Shown: piece by piece, positions 10,199 to 62,167 of the stretch | Layout of the letters: each line of letters begins with the position of its first letter | Numbering within the stretch: the first letter of the stretch is position 1 | NCBI GenBank assembly: GCA_016219325.1 | Contig: JACRNH010000002.1 | Coordinates: 3,862-67,861, forward strand | Length of the DNA: 64,000 bases | Direction of reading: 5' to 3' | Source: Candidatus Collierbacteria bacterium | Lineage (GTDB): Bacteria; Patescibacteriota; Microgenomatia; UBA1400; JACPES01 | The notes under the pieces: generated by a model | The model's input: the letters and a program-made list of their open reading frames with translations, nothing else | Told to the model about the DNA's origin: nothing | The model's database searches: none | Made by a program: the position numbers and the translations under genes

Positions 10199-10462
10199 AT
10201 GAAAAAATTTTCAAGTGAAAATCCGGGAACTGTCGAAGTTTTCAAAGATCCGTTTACCGGGTATTGGGAAGTTCGACCGCAAAAAGCAGGGAATGGTTAC
10301 GGCGATTTGGCGGAAATAAACATTGACTGTTTGACGATGATCGGTCATCTTGATATGCAGCCGGATACGACAGACAGGGGTGATTTTTTGTCTTCATTAA
10401 GTGAGCAGGCGCGGCAGAAAGAATTGCTGGAAGATCTAAAAAGAATAATGGGCACAGGCTGA
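10199..10462 (+). CDS. hypothetical protein
   Basis: 87-aa ORF. Confidence 0.25.
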   Translation: MKKFSSENPGTVEVFKDPFTGYWEVRPQKAGNGYGDLAEINIDCLTMIGHLDMQPDTTDRGDFLSSLSEQARQKELLEDLKRIMGTG

Positions 10463-45542: not shown

Positions 45543-46862
45543 TTGATTAATCAGCTTTGCCAAGCATTCTGCTTTTTCATTTGAAATACTAATATGCGTC
45601 GGTAGATTGAAAATATGTTCCGAGAGATTTTCGGTGTTAGGGCAAGAGCCTGGTTGATATTTAACCTGAGAGTCGCTTACCCGCTCAGGGGAAACAGGTG
45701 CGTCGTACCAATGATCCATCAGATAAAAACCATGGCGGGTCAATTTTTTTTCTAACTCGTCCCTGTTTCCCACCCAAATCGGGTAGCGTAAATTAGAGCC
45801 GTTTTTTATGTCATCAATTATCACCAATTTAAACTTCCGGTTAAGAATCCGGCCGTAAGTTAAGGCAATATTCCGGCGGTGAACTATTATTTTGTCTAAT
45901 CTTACTAATTGATTGAATGTCAAAGCAGCCAGAGCGTTAGGCAGCGCGGTAGGCGTCGTCGGAGCGTCAACAGGAGAGTTCATTAGCCCAAAGAATTTTG
46001 CCAGCCAATGAATTACTTTTCCCACTCTAAACTTGCCAATCCCAATTTGATAAGTTGATCTTATTAACCAAGTACAGATAGGATAGAGGAGATGTTTTCC
46101 GATTTCTATTAAAATTAAATGATTCGAATCATTTAATTTTTCGGGCAATGGCAAAATTTTGCTGGCGATCAATGCTCCGCCGGAAACTCCATCAATCACT
46201 TTATCTTGGGAGAAAGAAAGAATGATAGCGTTAGCAGAAGCTATTAGTTGTTGGTTATTAGTTGTTGGTTTTGGCGTTGGGATAAAGAAATGAGCTAAGT
46301 CCTGAATTATAAAAATCTTGTGGTTCCGGCACCACTTAACTATTTCGTCATTCTCCCGGTTAATATATCCAAGAGTGTGTTGTAGAATTATGGCCTTAGT
46401 TTTAGAAGTGGCGGATTTTTTAATTTGCTCAAATGACGGATTGAGATTTTTGGTGTCAACATCAACATAAATAGGTGTTGCCCCCAAATCTAAAATCGGT
46501 TGCACCACTGCCACACAGGTAAAAGCTTGAACTATAACTTCGTCATCCTGTCCGATTCCGAGCTTCCGTAAGGCCTCATAAATTGCGTGCCGGCCTTTTA
46601 AAAATAGTTCCACTGTCATTCCGGGCTTGACCCGGAATCTATTTAAATAGATTCCCACCTTCGCGGGAATGACACTTTTCAGTGTCTCAAGCTCCTTCCC
46701 CTGTTTCCATTTCCACGGTTGAAATAACAATTTCAGAGCTAAAATTCTGTCTCCGGAAGTATAGTTTGATCCTAAGGAATTGGTGATGATCATATTGATA
46801 TCATAGCTAATTGATACAATTGGCGCTATGAAGAAGCTGAAAATGAACTTGGAGTTATCCAA
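45540..46862 (-). CDS. DegT/DnrJ/EryC1/StrS-family PLP aminotransferase
   Basis: VQAFTCVAVVQPILDLGATPIYVDVD and the lysine region SFSQDKVIDGVSGGAL. Has an in-frame direct-repeat insertion (TTATTAGTTGTTGG twice). Confidence 0.55.
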   Translation of the reverse strand: MDNSKFIFSFFIAPIVSISYDINMIITNSLGSNYTSGDRILALKLLFQPWKWKQGKELETLKSVIPAKVGIYLNRFRVKPGMTVELFLKGRHAIYEALRKLGIGQDDEVIVQAFTCVAVVQPILDLGATPIYVDVDTKNLNPSFEQIKKSATSKTKAIILQHTLGYINRENDEIVKWCRNHKIFIIQDLAHFFIPTPKPTTNNQQLIASANAIILSFSQDKVIDGVSGGALIASKILPLPEKLNDSNHLILIEIGKHLLYPICTWLIRSTYQIGIGKFRVGKVIHWLAKFFGLMNSPVDAPTTPTALPNALAALTFNQLVRLDKIIVHRRNIALTYGRILNRKFKLVIIDDIKNGSNLRYPIWVGNRDELEKKLTRHGFYLMDHWYDAPVSPERVSDSQVKYQPGSCPNTENLSEHIFNLPTHISISNEKAECLAKLINQ

Positions 46863-47646
46863 TCTGGGTGAAAAAACACATATTTGGTTTCCATTGCCTC
46901 AATTAGTATGCGGAGAGCCTAAAGAGTGGTTAAATCCAATAGATTTTAAAATTGTAGCTGATAAAAAATTTGGAAACCAATCGGCATATTTTATTACAAA
47001 TGAACCCGGAATTAGAATTTCCGCCGCTTTCCTATTATCAGATAATAGGGAAAGCGGAAATAAAAACCCAAAAATATTTTTACAATCAAATCCCATGGTC
47101 CAGTCAGATTCCCCGGCAATCAAAAATATAGCCAAATATTTGTTTTCTGGAGTATCGGGCGATAATGGAAAAGCCAAAAAGTGTTTTGATTGGGTGATTG
47201 GATATTTGGAATACGCCAATCCCATAAGAGGGCTTTACTCGTCAATTCAGGCTTTGACAGATAGAAAAGTGGATTGCGGTGGGTTTTCCACACTGTTGGT
47301 GGCGTTATTGCGGGCGGCAAAAATTCCGGCAAGGTGCGTTTTCGGCTGGGCGGTTGAATCAAAATACGGCTATCACGCTTGGGCGGAATTTTTTGATAAA
47401 AAGAAACATTCCTGGATTCCGTGCGATCCGTCTGTGGCTCATTTAGGAAATAGGACAAAACTAGACGCTGGTTTTGGATTTATAAATGATAAAAGGGTTA
47501 TATTTTCAGTTGGTGAAGATTTGGAATTAACAGGGGATAATATTAAATGGAATATTCCGCTTCTACAGTCGCCGGTGGTGGTGCCACTTGACGATAACGG
47601 AATTCCAACAAAATTTTTTGAAAGGCTGATCTGGTCTGTGGTTTAA
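46828..47646 (+). CDS. transglutaminase-like cysteine protease superfamily protein
   Basis: CGGFSTLLVALLRAAKIPARCV ... YHAWAEFF ... IPCDP gives a Cys-His-Asp arrangement. Confidence 0.45.
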   Translation: MKKLKMNLELSNLGEKTHIWFPLPQLVCGEPKEWLNPIDFKIVADKKFGNQSAYFITNEPGIRISAAFLLSDNRESGNKNPKIFLQSNPMVQSDSPAIKNIAKYLFSGVSGDNGKAKKCFDWVIGYLEYANPIRGLYSSIQALTDRKVDCGGFSTLLVALLRAAKIPARCVFGWAVESKYGYHAWAEFFDKKKHSWIPCDPSVAHLGNRTKLDAGFGFINDKRVIFSVGEDLELTGDNIKWNIPLLQSPVVVPLDDNGIPTKFFERLIWSVV

Positions 47647-47667: not shown

Positions 47668-49025
47668 TAAATAAATGGTTTTCGTTTTTTATCCCAGAAT
47701 TTTCCGCGGCGGCAAAGATTTTCAACATCAGATTTGTTTTTCAATAGAGCTTCAACCATAATTTCTAGAAAGATAGTATTTTGCGAACCCTTAACTAAAA
47801 TGATTTCATTCCCTGAAAGATTTTTTGTTAAATAATTTGCCGCCTCTCCGGCGGCAGAAAACCATTCGACCGGCAGTTTTGATTGTTGAATTGCCGGCAG
47901 AAAGTATTGTTTCATCAATGGACCGACAAGGATAATTTTGTCAGCTGATTTTATCGCAGTTTCCGCCACTTTTTTATGTTCGATTTCAGCCTGTGATCCG
48001 AGCTCTCTCATGTCCCCTAAAACAGCAATTTTAATTTTGCCCCCCCCAATATTTTTTAGCATCTCAAGACTTCCATTCATAGTTTTTCCCGAGGCGTTAT
48101 ATGAAGAATCAATAATTGTGGTGTTTTTAATTCCTTGAAAAATCCGGCCTCGGCCGGGGGGAAGATTAAAATTAGCGGTTAAAGCCTCTGAAATTTTTTT
48201 GACCGGCAAATCTAAAATCATTCCGACTGTTGCTGCCACTGCCATGGTTTCACTGTAATAATTGGGAAGAGCAAGATTTAGCAGATTTATGAAGTATGAT
48301 TTATGATTTATGAATAAAGAAATAGATGTTCCATCTAGGCTTGGAAGTATAGATTTAATAACAACGTCAGCGTTCTTCTTTCTTCCGAATGTCACAATGC
48401 GGGCTTCATCTACCGGTTTTAATGAAATAATTTCCGGTTGATCGGCATTCAAAATGGCGTATTGAAGATCCGGGTTTTGTGTCACCAGTTTTCCTTTCTC
48501 TTTGGCTATCGTTGCAACAGAGCCAAATTGTTGCGTATGAACAGGTAGGGCATTTAGAATTACCCCGATATCCGGATGTAGAATTGTCAATAAGTATTCC
48601 ATATTTTTTGGCAGGGTCGGTTCATCGATTCCCATTTCAACCAGATAGCAGTCAAATGCTGAATGCTGAATACTGAATACTGAATGCAATGCTTTAAGCG
48701 GAGCCAGAAGACAAATTTTTAGCCAGTCAAAAAATGAATAGTCGATAAAGTGCAAGCCGAGAATATCAGCCGGAATTCCGGATTCGGAATTGGCCTTTTC
48801 GGCGACTTTAAGATTTTTGAATTTTAGTCTTAACACCGGAGCGATAGCGTCTACGGCACTGGACTTTCCGGCAGAGCCGGTGACTCCGACTATGAATGGG
48901 CGGTTAATTTTTAATACTTGCCGCGCCCAAAACCTTAACCACCATAAAACCGGCCAGCGGAGAATGTTTTTCATCGAATTTATTATAGCTTGTTTAAAGG
49001 CTTGGTTTGGCGTAACCACTTCCAA
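47667..49025 (-). CDS. murF: Mur ligase (MurF-like UDP-MurNAc-pentapeptide synthetase)
   Basis: GVTGSAGKSS P-loop and NSESGIPADILGL. Heptamer repeat insertion LKALHSVFSIQHSAFD. Confidence 0.55.
   Translation of the reverse strand: MEVVTPNQAFKQAIINSMKNILRWPVLWWLRFWARQVLKINRPFIVGVTGSAGKSSAVDAIAPVLRLKFKNLKVAEKANSESGIPADILGLHFIDYSFFDWLKICLLAPLKALHSVFSIQHSAFDCYLVEMGIDEPTLPKNMEYLLTILHPDIGVILNALPVHTQQFGSVATIAKEKGKLVTQNPDLQYAILNADQPEIISLKPVDEARIVTFGRKKNADVVIKSILPSLDGTSISLFINHKSYFINLLNLALPNYYSETMAVAATVGMILDLPVKKISEALTANFNLPPGRGRIFQGIKNTTIIDSSYNASGKTMNGSLEMLKNIGGGKIKIAVLGDMRELGSQAEIEHKKVAETAIKSADKIILVGPLMKQYFLPAIQQSKLPVEWFSAAGEAANYLTKNLSGNEIILVKGSQNTIFLEIMVEALLKNKSDVENLCRRGKFWDKKRKPFI
48655..48688. 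repeat. (TGAATRC)n heptamer repeat inside murF
   Basis: aaatgctgaatgctgaatactgaatactgaatgc. Confidence 0.8.
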
Positions 49026-49435
49026 AATTGCTTTGGCGAGAAAATTTTGATCGGTCTTAATGTCCTTTTTACTTTTGAAACTAGGATATGTTTTTTATCC
49101 AGCGATATCAGAATTGTCGCTCTTGAATGAACTACTCCGGCAAGCACGTGGGCGTCGCCAGGATCGTTAATCATAGGTATAAACTTCATGATCTTTTCTT
49201 CGCTTGGAGTATTAATGACTTGAATTGTTCTTGAAGACAGTAAGTTCTCGAAAGCTTGAGTTTGAATATTTACTTTACTTAAATTACTAGCTGCCTCACG
49301 GACAATTTTTTCGGTTGCGATTAACTTAATCTTCTTTTTGGCCCCGGCAGTCAGAAGTTTTCCTGATCCGCCGGTTGAAGAAATCAATCCGGATAGAATT
49401 ACGGAAGTGTCAAGGAAGACGGTTAATGATTTCAT
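48983..49435 (-). CDS. PIN-domain toxin (VapC-like)
   Basis: VFLDTSVILSGL and DPGDAHVLAG motifs. Confidence 0.5.
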   Translation of the reverse strand: MKSLTVFLDTSVILSGLISSTGGSGKLLTAGAKKKIKLIATEKIVREAASNLSKVNIQTQAFENLLSSRTIQVINTPSEEKIMKFIPMINDPGDAHVLAGVVHSRATILISLDKKHILVSKVKRTLRPIKIFSPKQFWKWLRQTKPLNKL

Positions 49436-49670
49436 CTATTCGCGCTTGTTGTTTCGCGGTCAATTTATCATCATTAATCCATTGCTGTATCCGCTTGAGA
49501 TTAAAAGAACGAGGTTTTATTTCATTTATAGTTTTTTGACGAACCGGTTTTATTTCTGCCAGCGGACGGGAGCGATACAGAAGCAAAAGAGGCTGTCCAT
49601 TCTCCATAGCGTCTTTTACTTGAGAAAAATCTTCCCGCATTTGTTTGGTGGATATAGTTTGAATATTCAT
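49410..49670 (-). CDS. Phd/YefM-like antitoxin
   Basis: Small ORF directly upstream of, and overlapping, the PIN gene; N-terminus MNIQTISTKQMREDFSQVKDAMENGQPLLL. Confidence 0.4.
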   Translation of the reverse strand: MNIQTISTKQMREDFSQVKDAMENGQPLLLLYRSRPLAEIKPVRQKTINEIKPRSFNLKRIQQWINDDKLTAKQQARIDEIINRLP

Positions 49671-49746: not shown

Positions 49747-50856
49747 ATGCTAACTGTTTTGATATTTTTTATTCTCCTCTCGGTTCTGGTTCTGGTTCAT
49801 GAACTAGGGCATTTTATCGCAGCCAAAAAATTGGGTGTGGTGGCGGAAGAGTTCGGATTGGGATTACCGCCGAAAATAAGGAGGTTATTTACCTGGCAGG
49901 GGACTGAATTTACTCTTAATTGGTTGCCGTTGGGAGGGTTTGTGAAGATGAGGGGGGAGAATCGCGAAACAGAAAACAATGAGCAAAAAACAATGAGCAA
50001 TGAGGGTGACGGTTACTTTTATGCGCAGAAGCCGTGGAAGCGGGCGGTGATTTTGGTGGCCGGAGTGTTTATGAATTTGGTTTTGGGAGTGGCTGCATTT
50101 ACCGTGGTTTATACGGTTATGGGAATTCCGGAAGAAAGAGATGTAGTAGTAATTGACGGTGTGGCGCCGGGAAGTCCGGCGGAACGAGCACGATTAGAGC
50201 CGAATGATATCGTGCTCGAACTCAAATCTCAAAACTCAAATCTCAAAACTATTAAGACAGAACAATTTATTGAGTTGATCAATCAGAATAGGGGAGAAGA
50301 AGTTAAACTCGTTGTCAAGCGCGGAAGCGAGGATAAGGAGATTTCTATAACTCCCAGGGTTGAGTCAGAGACTCCGGCAGGGGAAGGGGCTTTGGGGGTG
50401 GCAATATCCAATATTCAGTTTATTCATTATCCTTGGTGGCAGATGCCGTTCCGGGCGTCCGTAACCGGGTTTAAGGAAGCTTTGGCGTGGGGAGGAAACA
50501 TCGTCGGAGGATTGGGGAAAATGCTGGTTGATTTAATAGCTCACGGCAAAGTCCCAAATGACGTTGCCGGTCCAGTTGGAATTGCTAGAATTACCGGAGA
50601 AGTTGCCAAAAGAGGCTGGATTCCGTTATTCCAGCTAGCCGGAATTTTATCAATCAATTTGGCGGTGGTGAATATTCTGCCGATTCCGGCTTTAGACGGC
50701 GGCCGGCTGTTATTTTTAGGCATAGAAAAACTGCGGGGCAAGCCGATGGATCCCAAAAAAGAGCGCTTAATCCACTTAGCCGGTTACGCGGTGCTGCTGG
50801 GCTTGATTGTGTTGATAACTTTTCGCGATATATCAATGGCGGTCTCCGGGAAATAA
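49747..50856 (+). CDS. rseP: RseP-like site-2 protease (M50 with PDZ)
   Basis: HELGHFIAAKKLGV (HExxH), a PDZ-like middle domain, and C-terminal ALDGGRLLF. Two in-frame repeat insertions. Confidence 0.75.
   Translation: MLTVLIFFILLSVLVLVHELGHFIAAKKLGVVAEEFGLGLPPKIRRLFTWQGTEFTLNWLPLGGFVKMRGENRETENNEQKTMSNEGDGYFYAQKPWKRAVILVAGVFMNLVLGVAAFTVVYTVMGIPEERDVVVIDGVAPGSPAERARLEPNDIVLELKSQNSNLKTIKTEQFIELINQNRGEEVKLVVKRGSEDKEISITPRVESETPAGEGALGVAISNIQFIHYPWWQMPFRASVTGFKEALAWGGNIVGGLGKMLVDLIAHGKVPNDVAGPVGIARITGEVAKRGWIPLFQLAGILSINLAVVNILPIPALDGGRLLFLGIEKLRGKPMDPKKERLIHLAGYAVLLGLIVLITFRDISMAVSGK
49966..50003. repeat. AACAATGAGCAAAAAACAATGAGCAATGAG element inside rseP
   Basis: Encodes ENNEQKTMSNEG. Confidence 0.75.
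50221..50250. repeat. (CTCAAAW)n heptamer repeat inside rseP
   Basis: ctcaaatctcaaaactcaaatctcaaaact. Confidence 0.8.
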
Positions 50857-51635
50857 TGAATTCATTGGTGTTGAAAATTGCCGGTTTAAATTTGGAATTG
50901 AGATTCAATCGTAAAGACTGGTTTGCTTTTTGCCGCGGAAAATACATGAAGTTTTGGTCCTCTGATAATGGCAAAATTGACATGTCAATTTTGGTCGAAA
51001 CGGGATCTTTAAAAAATAAAAAAGTTGCGGCCAGAATAAAATATTTTTCGAAAAGTTCTGCCGAGCTGTTATTCAACCGGGATTTAGAAAATGATTTTCT
51101 GATATTTAATTTCCTGATTAAAAAAGTTTTTGCCGGAACGCTTTTGCTAAATGACGGATTAATGATTCATGCTTCCTCCGCAGCGATTAACGGCCAGGCG
51201 GTTTTATTCGCAGGTGAATCGGGAAAAGGAAAATCGACGATTGTTAACAAACTAAACTGCCGGATTTTGGCAAACGACAGAAGTATTTTAAGATTTGAAA
51301 ACGGTGTTTCGTTGGTTTTTTGTTCCCCGTTTTATGAACAGGATGACTTTCCAAAAGTCAATATCAGTTGCCCACTGTCGGCGATTTTTTTATTGGAAAA
51401 GAAAAATACTGCTAAAATAAATTTTGCAAAACTTGATAAGGGTGAGGCAATATTCAGGCTTATGCCGCAAGCTGTTGTTAGGGAGGATAGCCCGGGATTG
51501 TCAATAAATCGTCAAGCAGATCTAGCTTTCGGACTGGCTGAAAAATTGGCAAAGAAAATCGGCGTGTATACTTTGTCTTATCCTCTTAATCAGTTTTCCT
51601 TTTTGAAAAAAATGTTAAATGAAAATCAATTTTAA
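50856..51635 (+). CDS. HPr-kinase-C-terminal-like P-loop protein (HprK-related kinase)
   Basis: LMIHASSAAINGQAVLFAGESGKGKSTIV parallels the HprK C-terminal domain. Its start overlaps the rseP stop (TAATG). Confidence 0.5.
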   Translation: MNSLVLKIAGLNLELRFNRKDWFAFCRGKYMKFWSSDNGKIDMSILVETGSLKNKKVAARIKYFSKSSAELLFNRDLENDFLIFNFLIKKVFAGTLLLNDGLMIHASSAAINGQAVLFAGESGKGKSTIVNKLNCRILANDRSILRFENGVSLVFCSPFYEQDDFPKVNISCPLSAIFLLEKKNTAKINFAKLDKGEAIFRLMPQAVVREDSPGLSINRQADLAFGLAEKLAKKIGVYTLSYPLNQFSFLKKMLNENQF

Positions 51636-51927
51636 GACGGTCATCAGGCAAAACAGTAACGTTGTCTCTCATAAATTCAGGAACAAGGTTTATTTACTGG
51701 ACCCGAAATCTAACGAAGTCAGAATTTTAAATGAAAGCGCCGGGCTGATTTGGGAAGCTTTTGAAAAACCTAAAAAAGTATCGCAAGCGGTTAAGGCTTT
51801 GGCCGAGTTCTATAATTTACCCGGAAAGAATGTTAAAAATGACGCATTTGAATTTATCCGGGAGTATTTTAAATTGAAGTTGTTGAATGTTGTAAAACAA
51901 AGCCTAACTCCACCAAGCCAATTTTGA
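51619..51927 (+). CDS. PqqD-family protein (RiPP-recognition-element-like)
   Basis: KVYLLDPKSNEVRILNESAGLIWEAF...VKALAEFYNL...KNDAFEFIREYFKLKLL follows the PqqD pattern (sparse ligand, L-N, then a 'chaperone' helix). Overlaps the upstream gene's stop. Confidence 0.5.
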   Translation: MKINFKTVIRQNSNVVSHKFRNKVYLLDPKSNEVRILNESAGLIWEAFEKPKKVSQAVKALAEFYNLPGKNVKNDAFEFIREYFKLKLLNVVKQSLTPPSQF

Positions 51928-52103
51928 GCCGTTATAAGAGTACGTAAAATCTCCGGGATTGGCGGATATATATCCGGCGTTGCCCGCCAAGGTTAATTTT
52001 TCCACCCTGTCTTTCGGAGGTGAATACAATCTTTTTTTATTTGTTTTTCTGGATTTAATTTTCATAGTTTATGATAACAATAATAATATACTTTTGACAT
52101 ATA

Positions 52104-52547
52104 GTGTCAACTTTAAATTTAATGATACCAAAACAGACGGAAAATTATTTCAGGTTAAAAATATTCAACAAATCATCGGGCGGAATTTTCAAGATGGTTA
52201 TCAGGGGAAACAGTATGTGGCCGTTTTTAAGGCACGGACAGGAGATTACGGTTAGAAAGTTGAAGGAAAACGAGTCGTGCCGGATTGGAGATATCGTGGT
52301 TATAAAAATTAGGAATTTCTTTTTGATCCATAGAGTTCTGTTAAGAAAGAAAACAAAAGATGGTGGGGGCTATGAATATTTTACGAAAGGTGATAGGAGG
52401 TTGGTTGGCGATGGGTGGATAAAGAATAAGAATATTGTCGGTCGAATACCGACAGGGAAAACACAAAGAGTATTTGGTTATTTAACAGCTTGTTACTCTT
52501 TTGCCCTGCTTCTCATTGGGGAAATAATTAACAGAAGAAACGCCTGA
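52104..52547 (+). CDS. S24/S26-type serine peptidase (LexA/signal-peptidase fold)
   Basis: VIRGNSMWPFLRHGQEITV resembles the GDSMeP Ser nucleophile motif, and GRIPTGK is a possible Lys. An alternative start is the ATG at 52194, downstream of a TTGACA-N17-ATTTAA candidate promoter. Confidence 0.4.
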   Translation: MSTLNLMIPKQTENYFRLKIFNKSSGGIFKMVIRGNSMWPFLRHGQEITVRKLKENESCRIGDIVVIKIRNFFLIHRVLLRKKTKDGGGYEYFTKGDRRLVGDGWIKNKNIVGRIPTGKTQRVFGYLTACYSFALLLIGEIINRRNA

Positions 52548-53365
52548 ATCTTTTGCAGAATAGATTGATTGGCAATCAAAAGCCTAAGGAAAATATTGTA
52601 GCGGAATCTAAGATGCATATTGCGGATTGGCGATTTTACGGTGTGGGAATTGATAAACAACGGAACCAATGAGCTAAGGATATTTTTGGGTTTTAATTTT
52701 AATAAGACGGAATTAGGCACATTTGCTTTTGCGGTTTGCTTAGATAGAAGCAGAGGATAATAAGCGAATTCTTTTAAATTCCATGAAGCAAGTCTTGAAA
52801 TAACGATTTCCCAATTAATATCTAGATTTCTTGTAATTAATGAAATATCAAAAGACTGATGCTGATTTCGGCAACTATGATGGAAGAAAAAGTTAAGGCA
52901 TTGATGAAGGAGCATGTCCTCATTTTCCAAAATCAGAAATTTATTTCTTTGAAAGATAATTGATTGCGCCCGCCTGATAAATTCAGAAGTGATTCGTTTT
53001 ACTAACTTTGGAGGCAGAACATTAAAAATATACTTTGTGGGAAAAAATATCTGATTATGAATATCGCAAACAATCGTTGCTCTTGGCAATTTCTTTACAA
53101 AGTTTATTTGTGGCCTTAATGATGGTTGTTGATAGAAACGGTGTTTTGAATAGCCTAAGGATTTAAGAATAAGATTGACTTTAGAAAACGAGCTATTAGG
53201 AATTAGGATATCGATATCAACAGGATGTATTTTGGGCCATCGGCCGGTTAAGAAATAATATTGGGTAATTCCTTTTAGATATACCGCCTGAACCCCTTTG
53301 CGGTTTAGGGCGCGCTGGAGTTTAAGCAATTCATCGACGTAGATAAGTAATTTTTCCTCAATCAT
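52493..53365 (-). CDS. PF14907-like uncharacterised nucleotidyltransferase
   Basis: AVYLKGITQYYFLTGRWPKIHPVDIDILIP matches LKG...Y...R...DIDlLv. Confidence 0.4.
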   Translation of the reverse strand: MIEEKLLIYVDELLKLQRALNRKGVQAVYLKGITQYYFLTGRWPKIHPVDIDILIPNSSFSKVNLILKSLGYSKHRFYQQPSLRPQINFVKKLPRATIVCDIHNQIFFPTKYIFNVLPPKLVKRITSEFIRRAQSIIFQRNKFLILENEDMLLHQCLNFFFHHSCRNQHQSFDISLITRNLDINWEIVISRLASWNLKEFAYYPLLLSKQTAKANVPNSVLLKLKPKNILSSLVPLFINSHTVKSPIRNMHLRFRYNIFLRLLIANQSILQKIQAFLLLIISPMRSRAKE

Positions 53366-53404
53366 TTTGTCGGGAGAAAATGATTAATGTGAAAGTCAAA
53401 TAAT

Positions 53405-53641
53405 TTAACGAACAAAGCCCTGCCGTATTTCTTGTTTAATATTACCTTTTGATAAACAATTTAGAATCAATTCCCAATCTCCGCAAAATTTATATTTAGG
53501 ATTAAATCGTAATCCTTGGACCGCAGATTTTCGGAAAACCATATGTGAAAGTTGTCCAAGAAACGGAGCGGAGCGGGGAAGACGCTTTTGGTTAAATAAG
53601 CAGGAAGCAATTTTAAGTAAATCTTTAAATATATTGACCAA
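53405..53641 (-). pseudogene. family 2 glycosyltransferase, C-terminal fragment
   Basis: FRKSAVQGLRFNP is a GT2 C-terminal motif. It is separated from the N-terminal fragment by a frameshifting 73-bp tandem duplication. Confidence 0.5.
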
Positions 53642-53642
53642 T

Positions 53643-53788
53643 TTAAGTCGGAATATTCTTTGTGGCGGCCAATCTTTCGGATAAATCTTTTGGGACAGGC
53701 AAACGGTCGCTATCTTTAAGTCGGAATATTCTTTGTGGCGGCCAATCTTTCGGATAAATCTTTTGGGACAGGCAAACGGTCGCTATCG
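53643..53788. repeat. perfect 73-bp tandem duplication
   Basis: ttaagtcggaatattctttgtggcggccaatctttcggataaatcttttgggacaggcaaacggtcgctatc occurs twice, back to back. Confidence 0.9.
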
Positions 53789-54116
53789 TGGATTGATCGT
53801 TTTGCAAATATCGCAGAGAAACTTTAAGAAAATCTTTATTCCAAATGTCATCCGAGTCAAGAAATGCAATATAATCGCCTTTGGCATATTGGAACCCTGA
53901 ATTTCTGGCAGCCATAGAACCTTTTGATTTATTGATTCTAACAATTTTGACATGACCGCTAAAAGTTTTTAGTTGAGAAGAAAGCGGGGGTTGCGATCCG
54001 TCATCAACAATGATTATTTCCGTGGGAATATTTTGAGATAATACCGATCCGATCGTTTTCCGTAATAAGGCAACTCTGTTTTTAGCCGGAATAATGACTG
54101 AAGTTGCAAGAGACAT
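53643..54116 (-). pseudogene. family 2 glycosyltransferase, N-terminal fragment
   Basis: VIIPAKNRVALLRKTIGSVLSQN...IIIVDDGS...DSDD is the GT-A DxD layout. It terminates inside the duplicated segment. Confidence 0.5.
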
Positions 54117-54220
54117 GATATAGTGATCAGCTTAATTTGACTATATTATATGATTGTCTCTCAGGGCATAGAATTTTTGCTGATTATGACTAAAAGAAAT
54201 AAGTATAACTGCTTAGAACA

Positions 54221-55201
54221 ATGAGCTATTATCCTACAATTGCAATTGTTGGATGTGGGGCTATTGTTGAAACATTTTATTTGCCATCGTTTCATAAATT
54301 GGGATATGCAAAGAATAAAATTATTCTTGTGGATACAAATAACGACAGGTTACATAAATTGGGGGATAAGTTTGAGTTAAAGAAGATGACCATTGACTAT
54401 AGAAAAATATTGAATAAAGTTGACGGTGTCATTATTACCACACCAAGCTACTTACATTTTGAGCAAACAATTCAATTTCTAAAGAACGGTGTTTATGTTT
54501 TAAGCGAAAAACCGCTTGTTACAAGTTTTTCTCAATATAAAAAGATCTTAAATTTAGAAGAGAAAAGTGGATATAAAATATTGATTAATCATACAAAGAG
54601 ATTATTTCCAGTTTCTATTGAAATAAAAAATAAAATAAATTCTGGAGTAATTGGGAAACCATTGGGCTTTGACTACTCCGAAGGAGGACAGTTTACTTGG
54701 CCGACAGCGTCAGGATTTTATTTTCAATGGGATAAGGGTGTGTTAATTGATCGGGGATCTCACGCAGTTGATTTGGTTTGTTGGTGGTTGGGAAAACCAA
54801 AATCAATTAGTTATATAGATGATTCTTTTGGCGGAAGCGAAGCCGTAGCATTGTTGAATTTTAAGATTAATTCATGTAAAGGTAGAATAAAGTTTAATTT
54901 GTTCAATAAGCTATCTAATAAATATTATATTAAAGGCGCCAAGGGCGAAATTAGCGGTGATATTTACGATTTTACATCGTTTCTATTGACCAACTATTCT
55001 GATAAATCTACTGTTAAGATTACGCTTCCAACAAAGCAAAAGACCTACTTCGATTTTGCGGATATATTGATCAGAAATTTTATAGATATGATTTCTAATC
55101 ATGCTGATCCATTAATATCAGTTAGCGATATTAAAGATTCCGTTGAGACTATTGACTATTGTTATAGACACAGACAAAGATTTAACATGCCATGGTTTTA
55201 A
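54221..55201 (+). CDS. Gfo/Idh/MocA-family oxidoreductase
   Basis: IAIVGCGAIVETFYLPSF Rossmann N-terminus and EKP motif. Confidence 0.55.
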   Translation: MSYYPTIAIVGCGAIVETFYLPSFHKLGYAKNKIILVDTNNDRLHKLGDKFELKKMTIDYRKILNKVDGVIITTPSYLHFEQTIQFLKNGVYVLSEKPLVTSFSQYKKILNLEEKSGYKILINHTKRLFPVSIEIKNKINSGVIGKPLGFDYSEGGQFTWPTASGFYFQWDKGVLIDRGSHAVDLVCWWLGKPKSISYIDDSFGGSEAVALLNFKINSCKGRIKFNLFNKLSNKYYIKGAKGEISGDIYDFTSFLLTNYSDKSTVKITLPTKQKTYFDFADILIRNFIDMISNHADPLISVSDIKDSVETIDYCYRHRQRFNMPWF

Positions 55202-56259
55202 AAATGGAGAAGAGGGTCATTTTTGTTACAGGCGCTACCGGTTTTATTGGGGGAAGAGTTATAGAAAAACTTTCTAATGATAATAAGAATACGGTTATAG
55301 CAGGAGTCCATAATTGGAGTAACGCCGCCCGAATTGGACGGTTTCCGATAATAATGAGGCATTGCGACGTTTTAAATTTGCCCAGTCTAAAAAAAACTTT
55401 GAACGGTGTTACTCATATAATTCATTGTGCCGCAGGCTCAGACGAAATTATTATTAAAGGTACAAGTAATATCCTTAATGCCGCAATGGGGCTAAAGGTT
55501 AAAAGATTAATAAACCTTAGCAGTGCTGCTGTATATGGAAAAATTTCAGGATTAATTGATGAATCTGTTGTGCCTAACCCGATTGATCAATACGGTAAGG
55601 CAAAGCTTTGTGGCGAAAAAGAATGTTTTAAATATATGCTTCAGAGAGTGCCAATCGTAATATTGCGGCCATCAATAGTATACGGTCCGTTTAGCCAAAA
55701 ATGGACAATTGGAATTGGCAGGCAAATACTTCGAAAAAAAATCGGTTTGTCGTCAGGGTTTGAGGGGAAATGTAATTTATTATACGTCGATGATTTAATT
55801 GATGCAATCTTCTTATCTTTACATAAAGAAGAGGCGGTAAGTGAAACATTCAATGTTAATGGTCCGGAAATTGTGAGCTGGAATGATTATTTTAGAATTT
55901 TTAATAGATTGTTATCATCCGAAGCGCTCATCAGCATAAAACACACAGAATACCTTAGATTAATGGTTGCGGCTAATTTTTTAGGTCCAGTTAAAATAGC
56001 GGCTAAATTAGCTCTAGCCAAGCAGGAATCGTTAATCAGATTTATTTATAGAAGATTTCAATTAATGAGAAAAATTATGGATGGGGTTGAAAACGAAATT
56101 AAATTAAACATTAATTCGTCTGACCTTAGATTATTCCAGCTTCGCGCAATTTATGAAACCAAAAAGATAAATCGCGTTTTAAAATTTAAACCGAGAACCA
56201 GTATTGAAACTGGATTAAAAAAGACGATTGCGTGGATGAAACATGTTGAAATCATCTAG
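55192..56259 (+). CDS. NAD-dependent sugar epimerase/dehydratase (SDR)
   Basis: VIFVTGATGFIGGRVIEKL and YGKAK (YxxxK). Confidence 0.65.
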   Translation: MVLKMEKRVIFVTGATGFIGGRVIEKLSNDNKNTVIAGVHNWSNAARIGRFPIIMRHCDVLNLPSLKKTLNGVTHIIHCAAGSDEIIIKGTSNILNAAMGLKVKRLINLSSAAVYGKISGLIDESVVPNPIDQYGKAKLCGEKECFKYMLQRVPIVILRPSIVYGPFSQKWTIGIGRQILRKKIGLSSGFEGKCNLLYVDDLIDAIFLSLHKEEAVSETFNVNGPEIVSWNDYFRIFNRLLSSEALISIKHTEYLRLMVAANFLGPVKIAAKLALAKQESLIRFIYRRFQLMRKIMDGVENEIKLNINSSDLRLFQLRAIYETKKINRVLKFKPRTSIETGLKKTIAWMKHVEII

Positions 56260-57523
56260 ATTTTTCTTGGGTCACATGACCACCAATATCAAGCCGACCA
56301 TAATCTTCATTACTCAGCTTTATCCATTTCCTCCGGATACAGGTGGAAAATTTAAAACATTTGGGACGATAAAAGCTTTGCGAGATTTAGGCTGCAAGAT
56401 TAAATTATTTTCCTTCTGGGATAGTAGAAGTCCGTTTTACATGAAAATGAGTAAGCCACTGAAGGGGATTGAATCTAATATTATTTATAGCTCAATAATT
56501 GATGATTTACACCCTTTATATAAATATTGGAAGGTATTTTTATCAATTTTTTCGTTTTTCCCCTATAGGGTAAGAAAGTTCTATTCCAAAGGAATCATTA
56601 AGACAATTAAAAAAGACGTACCAAATTTGGAGAATCCCTCTATTATTTATTTAGATCACTTATCTTCATGTATTTATTTATTTAAAAATACCCCTGCCTA
56701 TTATCAGAAAATTTATGATGCTCATGATTTTGAGTCAGAAATAATCTATCATAGGATCAGGAATTCAAAAAGCTTCATTAGAAAAATTTTCCTTTATCTA
56801 GAATATCTCAAGCTTAAGAAATTTGAAAAAAAAGCTTTGATGGCGGCAGATAAGGTCTTTGCAATAAATGAGCCGTTAAAATTGAGATTGGAGACCCTTT
56901 CATCTCGCACCGTATTAACATCATCGGTCGCTGTTTTTGGGAGTAAATCCCTTAGGCTAAATAAAAATAAACCCGAAGGTAAAAGAATAGTTACTTTTAT
57001 TGGCACCTTATCATGGGAGGAAAATTTAGAAGGGATTGATTGGTTTATTTCTAAGGTCTGGGGGATGGTAAAAAGAATTGTTAAAGAGGCAGAATTTAAT
57101 ATTGTTGGGAGTTATGGGAATGAAAAGTTGCGAAAAAAATTCTCAAAATACGAGGGAGTAAATTATTTAGGTTATAAAAAGGATTTAAGGGAGATCTATC
57201 AACAAACTTCCGTTGGGATAGTTCCTATTTTTTCTGACTCCGGAGTAAAAATTAAATTTTTAAATTTTATTTTTAATTCAATACCGGTGGTGTCAACATC
57301 TATGAGTGCTGCCGGAATACTGGGGGTTAAGGATTCAGTTAATTGTTTTATTGCAGATAGGCCTGAGGAATTTGCTGAAAGAATAATAACTCTACTTCAG
57401 GATAAAAAGTTACGGACTAGTATGGTCACAAAGGGTAAAAAACTTACTTCACGTTATTATTCGGAAAAAAGCTTAAGAGAATTTTTTAAAAAAACATTGG
57501 CTCTATCTCGTCGAAGCGATTGA
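56243..57523 (+). CDS. GT4-family glycosyltransferase
   Basis: GT-B layout with a C-terminal EGIDWF...VSTSMSAAGI nucleotide-sugar-binding region. Confidence 0.55.
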   Translation: MLKSSRFFLGHMTTNIKPTIIFITQLYPFPPDTGGKFKTFGTIKALRDLGCKIKLFSFWDSRSPFYMKMSKPLKGIESNIIYSSIIDDLHPLYKYWKVFLSIFSFFPYRVRKFYSKGIIKTIKKDVPNLENPSIIYLDHLSSCIYLFKNTPAYYQKIYDAHDFESEIIYHRIRNSKSFIRKIFLYLEYLKLKKFEKKALMAADKVFAINEPLKLRLETLSSRTVLTSSVAVFGSKSLRLNKNKPEGKRIVTFIGTLSWEENLEGIDWFISKVWGMVKRIVKEAEFNIVGSYGNEKLRKKFSKYEGVNYLGYKKDLREIYQQTSVGIVPIFSDSGVKIKFLNFIFNSIPVVSTSMSAAGILGVKDSVNCFIADRPEEFAERIITLLQDKKLRTSMVTKGKKLTSRYYSEKSLREFFKKTLALSRRSD

Positions 57524-58717
57524 TCCTCTGTAGATTTTTTCCAGTTTTTCGATTTTATCTTCCCATCTGAAGTGTTTCTCAATATATGATCTTGCAGTGA
57601 ACCCGATTGCTTGACAGAGATCGGGGTTACGCAGGAGGTTAACTACTGATTCTGCAAAATCAATTTCTTTGTCGGCAATTATTAATTCTTTTCCAGACTT
57701 AAAATTAAAATTCTTGCAAGATAGACTGGTCGCAACTACTGGTTTGGCTAACGCCATGGCCTCCATTAATTTATTATGAATGCCGGCTCCCATGATTAAC
57801 GGACATACAACTACGTGGACATCATTAAATGAATTTGCTAGATTTTCAACATAGCCGGTAATCTCTATGCGATTGTCTTTTGCTAAGTTAAGAATGGTTT
57901 TTGGCGGGGATGCTCCAATAATTTTAAACTTGATATTGGGAAATTGCTCGGCTATAAAAGGAAAAATTTTTTTATAGAAATATATAACTGCGGTTGAATT
58001 AGCAATATAACTAATTTTTCCAGAGAAGGCGATAGTTGGCTCTCTTTTGCAATTAAAGTTTTTAAAGCTTGGAGAAGGCGGAAATAATGTTAGGTCTACG
58101 CCATTTTCTATACTTGCGATTCTTTTAATTCCGCTGATTTTTTTTAGTAGTAATGCCTCATGATTAGTGCTAGTTATGACGTACCGAAATTTATTTAGGC
58201 GCTGTTTTTCAAATGCGAGTACACGTTTAGATTCCATAGCATAAATTTTTTTCCAAATTGAGCTTTCAACAGTACCTGCAAACTGTTTATAGAGATCACT
58301 GAAACAATCGACGGCATCAATAATAATAGGAATCAAATTATTCAGTCCCAAATCTCCCGAAACAGAGTTCGCCACCTTGAAGGTTTCAACATGTATGCAG
58401 TCGTATCTGTGGTTTTTTAGCAACTGTAAAATTAATATTTTTAGGCTCTTGGAGACAAAATAATGTTGCTGAAAAGGTTTTCCATCAAAGACCGACAAAG
58501 TCGTTCGCAGTTGGCGTAAAACACTGAAGTCTTTAACCAAATATTGCCTTATCCTATTGTTTTTTTGTAAGTCTTCCATTCCTATAATTTCTGCTGATGA
58601 AGAATATGGAGCTATAATATCTACGAAATGACCTCTATCGGCCAACCCAATTGCGAAATTCCGTAATCGAGTACGAATTGGATTTGGAGGATAAGGAGCA
58701 ATAAATAATATCTTCAT
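57503..58717 (-). CDS. GT4-family glycosyltransferase
   Basis: MKILFIAPYPPNP...ADRGHFVDII and the GT-B C-terminal domain. Confidence 0.55.
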   Translation of the reverse strand: MKILFIAPYPPNPIRTRLRNFAIGLADRGHFVDIIAPYSSSAEIIGMEDLQKNNRIRQYLVKDFSVLRQLRTTLSVFDGKPFQQHYFVSKSLKILILQLLKNHRYDCIHVETFKVANSVSGDLGLNNLIPIIIDAVDCFSDLYKQFAGTVESSIWKKIYAMESKRVLAFEKQRLNKFRYVITSTNHEALLLKKISGIKRIASIENGVDLTLFPPSPSFKNFNCKREPTIAFSGKISYIANSTAVIYFYKKIFPFIAEQFPNIKFKIIGASPPKTILNLAKDNRIEITGYVENLANSFNDVHVVVCPLIMGAGIHNKLMEAMALAKPVVATSLSCKNFNFKSGKELIIADKEIDFAESVVNLLRNPDLCQAIGFTARSYIEKHFRWEDKIEKLEKIYRGSIASTR

Positions 58718-60024
58718 TTATTACTATAATTAGCTTTAATTCCTCGTAATATCATAAATGCATAAAGTGACGATTTTGAGTATGAGTCGATTAAGCTATT
58801 AATTAAAAAAAGCCAACTTGAAATAATCATCGCAATTAGATATGGCGTTGGTGAACTTTTCATCATGTGGACATCTGCTTTAAATATTTTCCAGGCTATC
58901 GTGAATAGTAGTATGGTTCCTATTAGTCCAAGTTCCATCAATGATTCAACAACAATGTTGTGTGATTCGGGAATAATATAATTGACTGTGGGTAATTTTC
59001 CGATAAACTTACCTGTCGTATTTAATAATACGAGTTCTGACGATTGAGAATATTGCGTAAAATTTCCGGTCCCAATTCCGATAATAGGATTATTCACAAA
59101 TAGAAGCATGCCTTCTTTGAGGAGGCTTATGTGTTCATAGGTAGTACTTAAGTCAAAGTCATTTTTCATTAATAATCGATCTAAAAGGTTGATTTTTAAT
59201 AGTTGCTTAGAGCTAAATAAAGAAAATGTAGTTACCGATATAAAAAGTAAAACAGCATACAAACGATTCGATAATGAAAATGTTTGATTTTTTTTCTGAG
59301 AGCAACCCAGAAAGAACAAAAAAGCGAATATCCCAATACTTGACGTGATTAAATGGCTGCGATAATTCCAGAATACAACCATTAATAGAATCATTGCAAA
59401 AGATGTTGCTCCAAAAATTTTCCAAAACCGATTTTTAGAAGCAAAAAATAGCGCCAGTGGAAAAAGGATGCTCATTTCTAGAGGGCTGACTTGAGACAGT
59501 CTTCCTTTTGATTTTTCAGCTAACTGGTAATACAATCCGAAATCTTTTAGTAAATAACTCCATATTTGAGACCATAGGTTTTCATTGATGAAGGCTGTTA
59601 TCGTTATCATAAATAGTATAATTCCTATGGCAATCATGATTGAGATAAATAACTTAAGTATCCATTTCTTAATTCCTTGAAAAGAAAAAATATATACCAA
59701 GCTAAAAGCTGTAATTAATCTCAATATTCGCTTGAGATTTATGATTGAGCAACAATTAAACATGCCATTGATAACAGTATATTGAAGGAAAATTAAAACC
59801 AGCAGATAAGTTTCCCCATTTAATTTTTTATGAATATTATTGGGTCGGATTTGTCGATAGATTGTAGTAGAAGCTATAATGAAAATTAAGAGATTTAAAA
59901 TAATATCTAGTTGTGTTGTCAATGAATGAAAAAATGATAGAAAAATAACGGTTGCAAAAGACATTTTTTCCAAATAACGAAAAATTATTTTACCTTTACC
60001 AACATTATCGTGTTCATGGTGCAT
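58714..60024 (-). CDS. Wzy-like O-antigen polymerase/ligase membrane protein
   Basis: 436 aa, at least 10 TM helices, and a large periplasmic loop typical of Wzy/O-antigen ligase. Confidence 0.4.
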   Translation of the reverse strand: MHHEHDNVGKGKIIFRYLEKMSFATVIFLSFFHSLTTQLDIILNLLIFIIASTTIYRQIRPNNIHKKLNGETYLLVLIFLQYTVINGMFNCCSIINLKRILRLITAFSLVYIFSFQGIKKWILKLFISIMIAIGIILFMITITAFINENLWSQIWSYLLKDFGLYYQLAEKSKGRLSQVSPLEMSILFPLALFFASKNRFWKIFGATSFAMILLMVVFWNYRSHLITSSIGIFAFLFFLGCSQKKNQTFSLSNRLYAVLLFISVTTFSLFSSKQLLKINLLDRLLMKNDFDLSTTYEHISLLKEGMLLFVNNPIIGIGTGNFTQYSQSSELVLLNTTGKFIGKLPTVNYIIPESHNIVVESLMELGLIGTILLFTIAWKIFKADVHMMKSSPTPYLIAMIISSWLFLINSLIDSYSKSSLYAFMILRGIKANYSNK

Positions 60025-60055
60025 AAAGTAAATTTTAACCTATTGACTTTTTATT

Positions 60056-61177
60056 ATGAAATCGTTTGATTTTATAAATCTTTTTTTATACGGTTTCCGT
60101 AATCTATTAGATAAGTGGATCTATCTTTATACCGGTTTATTTATCCCAAAGCCAATCAATTTTTATATTGTCCCGACCTTAAGATGCAATGCTAGATGCA
60201 AGATGTGTTTTATTTGGGCGCAAAAAGATCCAGAGTTAACGTATAGTTATTGGAGGATGGCTATTAACCAAATTGTTGGTTGGTGCGGCCCTGCGGCCAA
60301 AATTAACATTGCCGGAGGTGAGATTTTATATTCTTCAATGGCATTTAAACTGTTGCAATATTCTGCCAGGAAATCATTTATGACAGGTTTAACGTCTAAC
60401 GGATACTTGATAGATAAAAAAATGTCAGTAAAATTGATCGGTCTGAATCTTGCGAACATCAATATATCCTTAGATGGGATAAACGATAAAACTGTTAATT
60501 TTCTAAGAGGGAGGAGCGATTTTTTTGAGAAGACAATTAATGCAATTAAATTTTTGGTTGAAGAGAGAAATAAAAAAATGAGCAGAACTAAAATCATTAT
60601 CAAAACTACAATTATGGGTCCTAACATAAAAGAGATTTATGGATTGGTTGAAATGGCGCTTAAACTAGGTGTCGATAATGTATATTTTCAGCCAGTTCTC
60701 CCGCCATTTGAAGGAAATTGGACGGAGAATCAATTGAGATCCAGCGTTCTTTGGCCATCTCTGTCTGAGAGTGAAGTTAAAAATGAATTTAACAGGGTAA
60801 TCGGTCTTAAAAAAAAGATTAAAGGATTCATATTAAATTCAGAAGTTAGTTTGATAAGCATGATGAATTATCTCCTGGGAATTCCGCTAAAAATCGATCA
60901 TCCTCATTGCGAAATAGACTTAACAACTTTATTCTTTGAGCCCAGAGGCGCAATTAGATTTTGCAGTTATTATCAACCAATTGGACATATTAAAGACTTG
61001 CAAAAGATCAAAATTGAAGAAATGGTGAAAAAATCTCCCGCGCTAAAATTAAGGAAAACTATGCGTAAATGCGGCAAAAACTGTCTTGTGACGTGTATGT
61101 CTGACAAATCTATTTCGGATTATTTTAATATATTTTCAGCTTTAGTTGGATGGTCGTATAAACATAAGTCTGTTTAG
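60056..61177 (+). CDS. radical SAM enzyme with C-terminal Cys-rich SPASM/twitch-like region
   Basis: CNARCKMC (CxxxCxxC) and C-terminal FCSYY...KCGKNCLVTC. Confidence 0.55.
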   Translation: MKSFDFINLFLYGFRNLLDKWIYLYTGLFIPKPINFYIVPTLRCNARCKMCFIWAQKDPELTYSYWRMAINQIVGWCGPAAKINIAGGEILYSSMAFKLLQYSARKSFMTGLTSNGYLIDKKMSVKLIGLNLANINISLDGINDKTVNFLRGRSDFFEKTINAIKFLVEERNKKMSRTKIIIKTTIMGPNIKEIYGLVEMALKLGVDNVYFQPVLPPFEGNWTENQLRSSVLWPSLSESEVKNEFNRVIGLKKKIKGFILNSEVSLISMMNYLLGIPLKIDHPHCEIDLTTLFFEPRGAIRFCSYYQPIGHIKDLQKIKIEEMVKKSPALKLRKTMRKCGKNCLVTCMSDKSISDYFNIFSALVGWSYKHKSV

Positions 61178-61207
61178 AACAAAGGTTATCCGAGATGGTG
61201 AATTTTT

Positions 61208-62164
61208 TTGATTGCGATTAATAAACTCATGACAATTAGTGTTTTAATTACAACCAGAAATCGGGCGGAAATCTTAAAACGATGCTTAAAATCATTGGAG
61301 AGACAATCGACAAGGCCAAATGAAGTAATCGTAGTTGACAATGATTCTTCTGATAATACAAAAACAGTTATAAACAGTTTTAGATCGCTACGTATCCGAT
61401 ATTTGTTTGAGAAGAAAATCGGAATTGCATTTGGAAGAAATCGTGGATTAGCAGAGGCAAAAGGAAATATTTTGGCTTTTATTGATGACGATTGTATCGC
61501 GTCGCGAAATTGGATTAAAGAAATAGAAAAATCATTTAAAAAAAATGTTGATATTGTCGGGATTGTTGGCCGCAGTAAAAATATGTTTACGCAAAATCCT
61601 TATGCTTGCGCGGAACAATGTTGGTTTTTATATTGGTATTTAAAACATATTTCTATTTCAAATAAGGAAGAAATATTAAATGATGGGGAATTAATAAATT
61701 TTAAAAACATGGCTTTGCGGAAATCATTTATAAGGCAAACTCGATTTAATACTAAGTTGACAACTGGAAAATTTAGCGAAGAAGATACCGAAATCAGAAA
61801 GCGACTATTTAAAAAATTGAGATTGAAAGAAAAAATAACCTATCAGCCTAAAGTGATTGTCTATCATAAAAACAGATCCTCATTTTTGCAGTTATTATTG
61901 CGAAGATTTTATAAAGGAGTTGCGTTAGCCGAACTGTGCCAGAAAAAAAAGATAATAACGGTAAACTGTTTTAAGCGCCAATATTTGTTTTTGAAGTGGA
62001 TGAAAAGTATTGTTCCGGAAATGGAACGGTTGGATCATCTCCATGATCAAGTTTTATGTTTTTTTTGCATCCCGTTGCTGCCGATTTTTTCGAAAATAGG
62101 CTTTATTTTTTATTATGTTAGGCGCGCGCTTGGATTTCCGCTTTCAACTCAAAGCGATGGCTAA
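61208..62164 (+). CDS. GT2-family glycosyltransferase
   Basis: ISVLITTRNRAEILKRCLKSL...VIVVDNDSSDNT...FIDDDC. Confidence 0.6.
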   Translation: MIAINKLMTISVLITTRNRAEILKRCLKSLERQSTRPNEVIVVDNDSSDNTKTVINSFRSLRIRYLFEKKIGIAFGRNRGLAEAKGNILAFIDDDCIASRNWIKEIEKSFKKNVDIVGIVGRSKNMFTQNPYACAEQCWFLYWYLKHISISNKEEILNDGELINFKNMALRKSFIRQTRFNTKLTTGKFSEEDTEIRKRLFKKLRLKEKITYQPKVIVYHKNRSSFLQLLLRRFYKGVALAELCQKKKIITVNCFKRQYLFLKWMKSIVPEMERLDHLHDQVLCFFCIPLLPIFSKIGFIFYYVRRALGFPLSTQSDG

Positions 62165-62167
62165 TTT

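Follow-up and report, generated by a model that had tools for sequence, protein, structure and literature searches.

The closest described relatives of the locus analyzed here are two groups of ribosomally synthesized peptides with post-translational modifications (RiPPs) that carry phosphorylated serine. The first comprises the Linear Polyphosphorylated Peptides (LPPs), defined in May 2026 from the lppA-K-B-S-D-N genes of Paenibacillus alginolyticus (Popov et al., Nat Commun; PMC13381572). Their core set consists of a precursor, LppA, with the motif YxxPxVLxHQxIxFETxxS; an HprK-like kinase, LppK, which adds several phosphates to core Ser3; a discrete RiPP recognition element (RRE), LppB; a SipW-like peptidase, LppS (catalytic residues S29/H68/D93), which cleaves the leader only if LppB presents the precursor; an exporter, LppD; and an NTP transferase, LppN, which was silent in a heterologous host and may need a partner encoded outside the core (PMC13381572). 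In Bacillota, to which their authors considered LPPs restricted, the clusters are located inside capsular polysaccharide loci (PMC13381572). The second group comprises the lasso peptides paeninodin and pseudomycoidin, with their tailoring enzymes PadeK/PsmK, PsmN and B1: in pseudomycoidin, the C-terminal Ser receives its phosphate from PsmK, and attachment of one or two hexoses to this phosphate requires PsmN (PMC6993621; review PMC8498205), its residues D134 and D136 being necessary for hexose addition (PMC6993621). Here we argue that a stretch of 64,000 nucleotides from a Candidatus Collierbacteria bacterium of the candidate phyla radiation (CPR), contig JACRNH010000002.1, positions 3,862 to 67,861 (hereafter the window), probably contains a RiPP cassette of the LPP kind, which is related to the phosphorylated lasso peptides but linear. 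Its features are listed below, with coordinates counted from the first letter of the window; HMM stands for hidden Markov model, ORF for open reading frame and GT2 for family 2 glycosyltransferase.

49747-50856, plus strand: rseP, M50 site-2 protease (TIGR00054, 233 bits against a cut-off of 147.55), context and not a gene of the module
50856-51635, plus strand: LppK/PadeK-like P-loop kinase of HprK fold, Pfam ScmC (fold, Walker A, homology to LPP loci)
51619-51927, plus strand: discrete PqqD-type RRE, LppB/B1-like (PF05402, 39.2 bits against a cut-off of 23.4)
51904-52065, minus strand: precursor peptide gene, 53 aa (conserved ORF, codon changes, leader HMM)
52083-52110, minus strand: promoter of the precursor gene, TTGACA-16 nt-TATTAT (top promoter match of the region)
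52122-52547, plus strand: LppS-like S26B serine peptidase of Sec11/SipW type (TIGR02228, SEC11C match)
52493-53365, minus strand: LppN/PsmN-like PF14907 nucleotidyltransferase, 290 aa (PF14907, DxD motif)
53405-54116, minus strand: GT2 glycosyltransferase immediately upstream of the nucleotidyltransferase, frameshifted into pieces of 157 aa and 78 aa

The original prediction, made from the sequence alone, had recognized four of these ORFs as an HPr-kinase-like P-loop protein, a PqqD-family protein, a small Ser-peptidase-like protein (GNSMWP) and a convergently placed PF14907-type nucleotidyltransferase, and HMM searches returned all four at the same coordinates and with the same families. The P-loop protein, 100% identical to NCBI HZB78_00595, has the PEPCK/HprK fold and does not belong to an unrelated family; its precomputed Pfam family is PF27840 'ScmC'. 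It carries the Walker A motif G120-ESGKGKST-128 and conserves the second Asp of the metal-binding pair, while a PDB sequence search with it returned only P-loop noise and weak HprK matches. The next protein passes the PqqD model, its best NCBIfam match being the Bacillus-type lasso PqqD chaperone NF033536. Its gene overlaps the kinase stop and ends 194 nt upstream of the peptidase start. At 102 aa vs 93 aa it is nine codons longer than in relatives, so that its last 24 nt (51904-51927) run into the 3' end of the convergent peptide gene. The nucleotidyltransferase scores 84.6 bits with PF14907 (cut-off 31.2) and conserves a D50-I-D52 motif; a PDB sequence search with it found no relative.

The peptidase matches TIGR02228, the archaeal-type signal peptidase I, at 55 bits against a cut-off of 51.85 and aligns to human SEC11A/C (SEC11C match, E 2.5e-6), its Ser, His and Asp motifs (GNS31MWP, IH70RV, KGD91) being retained. 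It likely starts at ATG 52122, the start in the NCBI annotation (141 aa). SipW and the NiSOD maturation protease (TIGR02754) are likewise serine peptidases of Sec11/SipW type, which remove an N-terminal propeptide from a specific substrate; unlike them, the window enzyme has no N-terminal membrane anchor but a C-terminal hydrophobic segment followed by RR, and it is predicted, by analogy with LppS, to depend on the RRE.

How close is this set to genuine LPP clusters? A genome scan found three loci that fit LPPs, in Paenibacillus radicis (L025), Bacillus rhizoplanae (L031) and P. rigui (L059), all with the full published precursor motif and, in L025, with the order peptide, kinase, RRE, S26 peptidase, ABC gene, nucleotidyltransferase. 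We read the window as LPP-like because its enzymes align to those of L025 and L031 and keep the catalytic motifs: The kinase is 30% identical over 146 aa to that of the LPP-type cassette in L031, the RRE 22% identical over 79 aa and the peptidase 29% identical to their counterparts in L025, and the nucleotidyltransferase 28% identical to the L025/L031 homologue. The spacing of the peptidase triad is nearly equal as well (31/70/91 vs 29/68/93 in LppS). The window possesses, from the LPP core genes, the signal peptidase I-like peptidase, the discrete RRE, the HprK-like kinase and the PF14907 NTP transferase, and it shares with LPP clusters a YxxP precursor leader, the lack of any macrolactam cyclase and a location inside or beside a polysaccharide locus. 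It differs from them in its host, a CPR bacterium and not a member of Bacillota; in a precursor gene that is convergent with the RRE gene and has its own promoter; in a short core (~25 aa) that is aromatic and usually Ser-terminated; in a nucleotidyltransferase that is ~80 aa shorter at its N-terminus than those of Bacillota; and in a kinase with N-D for D-D.

No precursor peptide had been evident in the original prediction, which proposed the gap at 51928-52193 as the place to look. The gap proved to be occupied by a conserved 53-aa ORF which runs on the opposite strand, from 52065 to 51904 (minus), and is entered at NCBI as the hypothetical protein MBI5356099.1. The N-terminus of the peptide, MKIKSRKTNKKRLYSPPKDRVEKLTLAGNAGYISANPGDFTYSYNGSKLAWWS, is basic; its leader motif is YxxP (Y14, P17), a conserved block closes with GYISAN, and the aromatic tail is devoid of Cys, rich in Tyr and Trp and terminated by Ser. 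The peptide is matched by the leader HMM that we used for the wider family (see below). We collected 12 distinct homologues: nine from the loci that were read (the window, L001/L002, L004, L005/L006, L070, L071, L072, L073 and L079) and three (P0030-P0032) from a search of representative proteins. The family is rare, with five clusters in a profile search of 1.84 billion representative proteins and one matching locus in a metagenome scan; no NCBIfam model matches its members. Residues M1, K2, K4, Y14, P17, D19, K23, L24, L26, G31, Y32, I33, N36, T41, Y42, L49, A50 and W51 are invariant over the first seven homologues, and 8 of the 12 end in Ser. The boundary between leader and core is uncertain, since the GYISAN block is kept even where the tail diverges (P0032).

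In every locus the precursor gene lies between the PqqD gene, with which it is convergent, and the divergent peptidase gene. It is preceded by TTGACA-N16-TATTAT, which matches the promoter consensus at 11 of 12 positions, is the best match in a scan of 4 kb (49.6-53.6 kb) and lies on the minus strand, its second hexamer ending 17 nt before the ATG; no Shine-Dalgarno sequence was seen upstream of this ATG. Every related locus likewise has TTGACA followed by a -10 element of the TATATTAT type, at a spacing of 16 or 17, upstream of its peptide ATG. The promoter-like TTGACA which the original prediction had placed before the peptidase ORF thus gives way to a minus-strand promoter that serves the precursor gene instead. 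Comparison with the L071 precursor shows 18 synonymous and 5 non-synonymous codon changes, the differences by codon position being 3/5/19. The 53-aa ORF is a genuine coding gene under purifying selection, because third-position changes dominate, the antisense ORF is not kept open in L004 and the promoter is conserved upstream.

Two other elements of this region were considered and rejected. The plus-strand ORF at 51959-52255 (98 aa, TTG start) is the antisense of the real gene and is not open in L004, so it is no candidate for the precursor. The -35 box of the peptide promoter faces the plus-strand TTGACA of the original prediction in a palindrome, TTGACA-tatag-TGTCAA, at 52093-52110; as an operator at the divergent promoter it was discarded, given that relatives do not conserve it.

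The order of kinase, RRE, convergent peptide, divergent S26 peptidase and nucleotidyltransferase is kept in all the relatives (L001-L006, L070-L073, L076 and L079), among which the identity of the kinase falls to 39-42%. The genes were proposed to form a functional module, and their co-occurrence in every relative found bears this out; together with the precursor now found, it also supports the first of the two alternatives of the original prediction, namely a RiPP-like pathway of peptide modification. The start of the kinase gene coincides with the stop codon of rseP (overlap at 50854-50858), as in L001, L004 and L006, and since the rseP stop overlaps the kinase start, rseP probably heads an rseP-kinase-RRE operon. 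The same overlap is present in every Collierbacteria-like locus; in other phyla, rseP is not beside the kinase.

Read by homology with the LPP and lasso enzymes, the pathway would proceed as follows. The 53-aa peptide would be transcribed from its own strong promoter and its YxxP-containing leader bound by the PqqD-type RRE, upon which the HprK-fold kinase would phosphorylate a serine with one or more phosphates. The likeliest acceptor is Ser53, because a C-terminal Ser fits the known specificity of PadeK/PsmK; Ser34, in GYIS, would come second by analogy with Ser3 of LppA. The PF14907 nucleotidyltransferase, possibly with the adjacent GT2, would then decorate the phosphate, in the way that PsmN adds hexose in pseudomycoidin, and the Sec11/SipW-type peptidase would remove the leader from the RRE-presented precursor, around residues 27-31. 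The '-1/-3 small residue' rule of S26 enzymes was set aside in placing this cut, being inapplicable to an enzyme group in which LppS cuts after F-E-T. The predicted product would stay linear, because there is no cyclase.

The likeness to lasso systems extends beyond the shared families of kinase and nucleotidyltransferase, as it includes the lasso chaperone match of the RRE, a leader of [Y/W]xxP type and a precursor ending in Ser, the residue that PadeK/PsmK phosphorylate in lasso peptides. Nevertheless, a lasso peptide was rejected: an S26 serine peptidase takes the place of B2, neither a lasso cyclase (Asn-synthase homologue) nor a B2 transglutaminase-type protease is found in the six-frame translation of the 64-kb window, and the core does not have a family-conserved N-terminal Gly/Ala combined with Asp/Glu at positions 7-9. 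A gene with a transglutaminase core does sit 2.1 kb upstream of rseP (46828-47646, plus strand); as a substitute for B2 it was dismissed, for it matches PF01841 but remains under the PF13471 cut-off and is not beside the module in L001/L002. The Asn-synthase genes of L075 and L076 are, judging from their sequences, true amidotransferases, since they begin MCGIAGF; the cyclase of the lasso locus L048 begins MSTIVG.

Our reading as an LPP-kind cassette needs to be qualified, for several observations weigh against it. The homology is only remote, the window enzymes being 22-30% identical to those of L025/L031 with pairwise E values of 1e-14 to 1e-7. For every named NCBIfam kinase family, the kinase scores far under the curated cut-off: Its best match, ScmC (TIGR04249), gives 27.6 bits against 125, and TIGR04352 (HprK_rel_A) and TIGR04355 (HprK_rel_B) give 24.4 bits each against 200. 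The window proteins are consequently no members of these three equivalogs, among them the HprK-related TIGRFAMs family that the original prediction had cited. In the clade of the window, N140-D141 (ANDRS) stand at the metal-binding pair D158/D159 of PsmK, other Collierbacteria-like relatives having ADDRS. Beyond YxxP, the leader reads PxD(R/K)VEKLxLxGxxGYI and not PxVLxHQxIxFETxxS as in LPPs, and no Ser is invariant across the peptide family, given that clade B has D or N for Ser34 and ends in ...NSRW or ...NYSL. A C-terminal Ser is found in 23 of the 32 distinct peptides matched by the leader HMM, compared with a background of 9.8%, but this statistic comes from related sequences, some of them seeds of the HMM, and its p-value is indicative only. 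An iterated HMM search of all loci, seeded with the L048 exporter, did not find the MsbA-like ABC exporter, a published LPP core gene, in the 64-kb window, in L076 or in L079. Finally, the GT2 of the window is frameshifted and without its last ~65 residues, either as a pseudogene or by an assembly error.

Some of these points could equally suggest that the cassette is a decaying or inactive remnant, with genes adjacent by descent and no product in this genome. The Asn in place of the first Asp of the metal-binding pair, the frameshifted GT2, the shortened nucleotidyltransferase and the lack of an exporter in the window would fit such a state. Yet the peptide gene is under strong purifying selection, its promoter is conserved, and none of the four enzyme ORFs is disrupted or has lost its catalytic motifs; moreover, the Asn variant and the short nucleotidyltransferase are clade-wide and not private lesions, and a frameshift seen in a metagenome-assembled genome may stem from faulty assembly. 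Decay is the least probable of the explanations that we considered, and a very improbable one.

Another explanation comes from the ScmC match. The SynChlorMet cassette (ScmC/ScmD/ScmE/ScmF) and the HprK-related kinase A/B systems likewise pair an HprK-fold P-loop protein with a PqqD-family protein; our literature search found no function assigned to these systems, nor anything relevant for PF14907. They differ from the window in that the latter has no adjacent radical-SAM (S-adenosylmethionine) gene and its P-loop protein, at 24-28 bits, does not reach the equivalog cut-offs of 125-200. Could the window nonetheless encode a SynChlorMet-like RiPP, in which a radical-SAM enzyme, guided by PqqD, crosslinks the aromatic core while the ScmC-family protein is an accessory and not a Ser kinase? 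The candidate enzyme is encoded at 60056-61177 (plus strand). It had been described as radical-SAM/SPASM, of which the first part stands (PF04055, the only model passed) and the second is limited to a readable SPASM-like Cys pattern at the C-terminus (CX13GX4C ... CX3CX3C), with no match to the Pfam SPASM model. For this explanation speak the Pfam family and best NCBIfam match of the P-loop protein, both ScmC; the 21 loci of other phyla, L009 and L014 among them, in which radical-SAM/SPASM genes adjoin kinase and RRE; and a radical-SAM gene, encoding a 54%-identical homologue, which in L076 is also ~8 kb from the module (~8-9 kb in the window). Against it, the window enzyme lies 8 kb off, past genes on both strands, and the core is Cys-free, unlike the peptides of cassettes that contain radical-SAM genes. 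Furthermore, L079 combines the module with 10 kb of glycan genes and lacks a radical-SAM gene, a 41%-identical homologue is found in the L074 glycan locus with no module within 10 kb, and the resemblance to the kinase-adjacent radical-SAM proteins of other phyla is at superfamily level only (~38-46 bits). For these last three reasons the radical-SAM gene probably belongs to the glycan locus and not to the module, contrary to the partnership originally proposed, and we regard crosslinking of the peptide by this enzyme as improbable.

As an observation in its own right, the radical-SAM family with the SPASM-like Cys pattern (sub-threshold in Pfam) recurs in CPR glycan loci beside genes for family 4 glycosyltransferases (GT4), in the window and in L074-L078; the peptide module may or may not accompany it, and L075-L077 also have an AsnB-type amidotransferase next to it. 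A role of the window enzyme as an anaerobic sulfatase maturase was discounted: a sulfatase is close by in L076 but missing from the window, and none of the enzyme's top 25 NCBIfam hits is to such a maturase (anSME) model.

The glycan locus itself merits a comment. Glycosyltransferases, an epimerase, an oxidoreductase, a Wzy-like protein and the radical-SAM enzyme had been predicted downstream of the module, and HMM searches confirm them: The genes encode a GT2, a Gfo/Idh/MocA oxidoreductase, an epimerase, two GT4s, the Wzy-like protein, the radical-SAM protein, another GT2 and a DUF4330 protein. The LPP-kind module might, along the lines of the second alternative in the original prediction, extend into a phospho-linked glycoconjugate, of which the peptide would be the primer or anchor, with the nucleotidyltransferase and GT2 starting a chain on phosphoserine and the adjacent glycosyltransferases prolonging it. 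Such an extension, which would complete the cassette reading and not replace it, seems to us unlikely, though less so than the two explanations above. It is favored by the position of the module, which in each of the three lineages whose flanks are long enough (the window, L079 and L076) adjoins a Wzy-type glycan locus, despite their divergence and their different glycan gene content; by the GT2, a possible partner of the nucleotidyltransferase, which is intact in L071 and L079 (268-270 aa) and in L072 and whose stop overlaps the nucleotidyltransferase start (ATGA) in these three loci; by the PsmN-dependent addition of hexose to phospho-Ser in pseudomycoidin; and by the siting of Bacillota LPP clusters inside capsule loci, with an LppN that may need an outside partner (PMC13381572). 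On the other hand, Wzy, together with the Bac_transf initiating transferase that the glycan loci of L076 and L079 also carry, makes a complete lipid-carrier pathway in which no peptide primer is needed; the synteny in CPR can be explained by shared ancestry, as rseP is always adjacent too; and the GT2 is broken in the window genome. Outside CPR, glycan genes are near only 1 of 23 non-lasso kinase cassettes (at least 15 kb each) in other phyla, as searched with single-sequence phmmer seeds, which are weak.

Two further features of the window can be recorded here. GC content falls to 0.30-0.36 over ~51500-62500, against 0.40-0.46 on both flanks; this low-GC stretch takes in the peptide module as well as the glycan locus and has the look of an island that is variable or was acquired. 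A likely toxin-antitoxin pair, made up of a PIN-domain protein (150 aa) and a partner of 86 aa that overlaps it, is encoded at 48983-49670 (minus strand), between rseP and a Mur-ligase-like gene.

Cassettes of kinase and RRE are found also in Desulfobacterales, Acidobacteriota, Chloroflexia, Myxococcota, Nitrospira and other taxa. Iterated HMMs run over 73 loci gave the following counts of genes beside the kinase.

RRE: 59 of 73 loci
PF14907 nucleotidyltransferase: 42 of 73 loci
S26 peptidase: 30 of 73 loci
radical-SAM gene: 21 of 73 loci
lasso cyclase: 20 of 73 loci

All loci of this wider family score under the curated cut-offs set for the named NCBIfam kinase families. In the Acidobacteriota loci L009 and L014, the genes for S26 peptidase, kinase, RRE, radical-SAM enzyme and nucleotidyltransferase are contiguous, and in L009 peptidase and HprK-fold kinase form a single ORF of 456 aa (9077-10447, plus strand), a gene fusion that links the two activities. 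In most non-lasso loci, a small ORF next to the kinase is picked up by the leader HMM and shows the pattern KK.Y..PK....KL. Among L007-L069, examples are L019 9070-9240, L024 774-950 and L014 9307-9471, which combine this leader with two or three Cys and a C-terminal Ser and stand beside an HprK-fold kinase and RRE, with or without nucleotidyltransferase, radical-SAM enzyme and S26 peptidase; no NCBIfam model matched such small ORFs and our search found no paper on them.

In terms of biology, the family built on kinase and RRE, with peptidase, nucleotidyltransferase and radical-SAM enzyme as additional members, is much wider than published, and the C-terminal Ser is its likely general acceptor. 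An LPP-like enzyme logic is now seen in a CPR bacterium with a reduced genome, outside Bacillota and without an exporter. The GT2, which in relatives is translationally coupled to the nucleotidyltransferase through overlapping stop and start codons, is a concrete candidate for its partner, and the recurrence of the module beside glycan loci in distant lineages makes a link between peptide and surface polysaccharide testable. There is a small chance that the phosphoserine of the peptide anchors a sugar chain begun by the GT2 and nucleotidyltransferase and extended by the Wzy-type locus, the product being a peptide-anchored surface glycoconjugate and not a free bioactive peptide. If true, this would explain why the LPP and paeninodin clusters of Bacillota are sited in capsule loci and why LppN is silent without partners.

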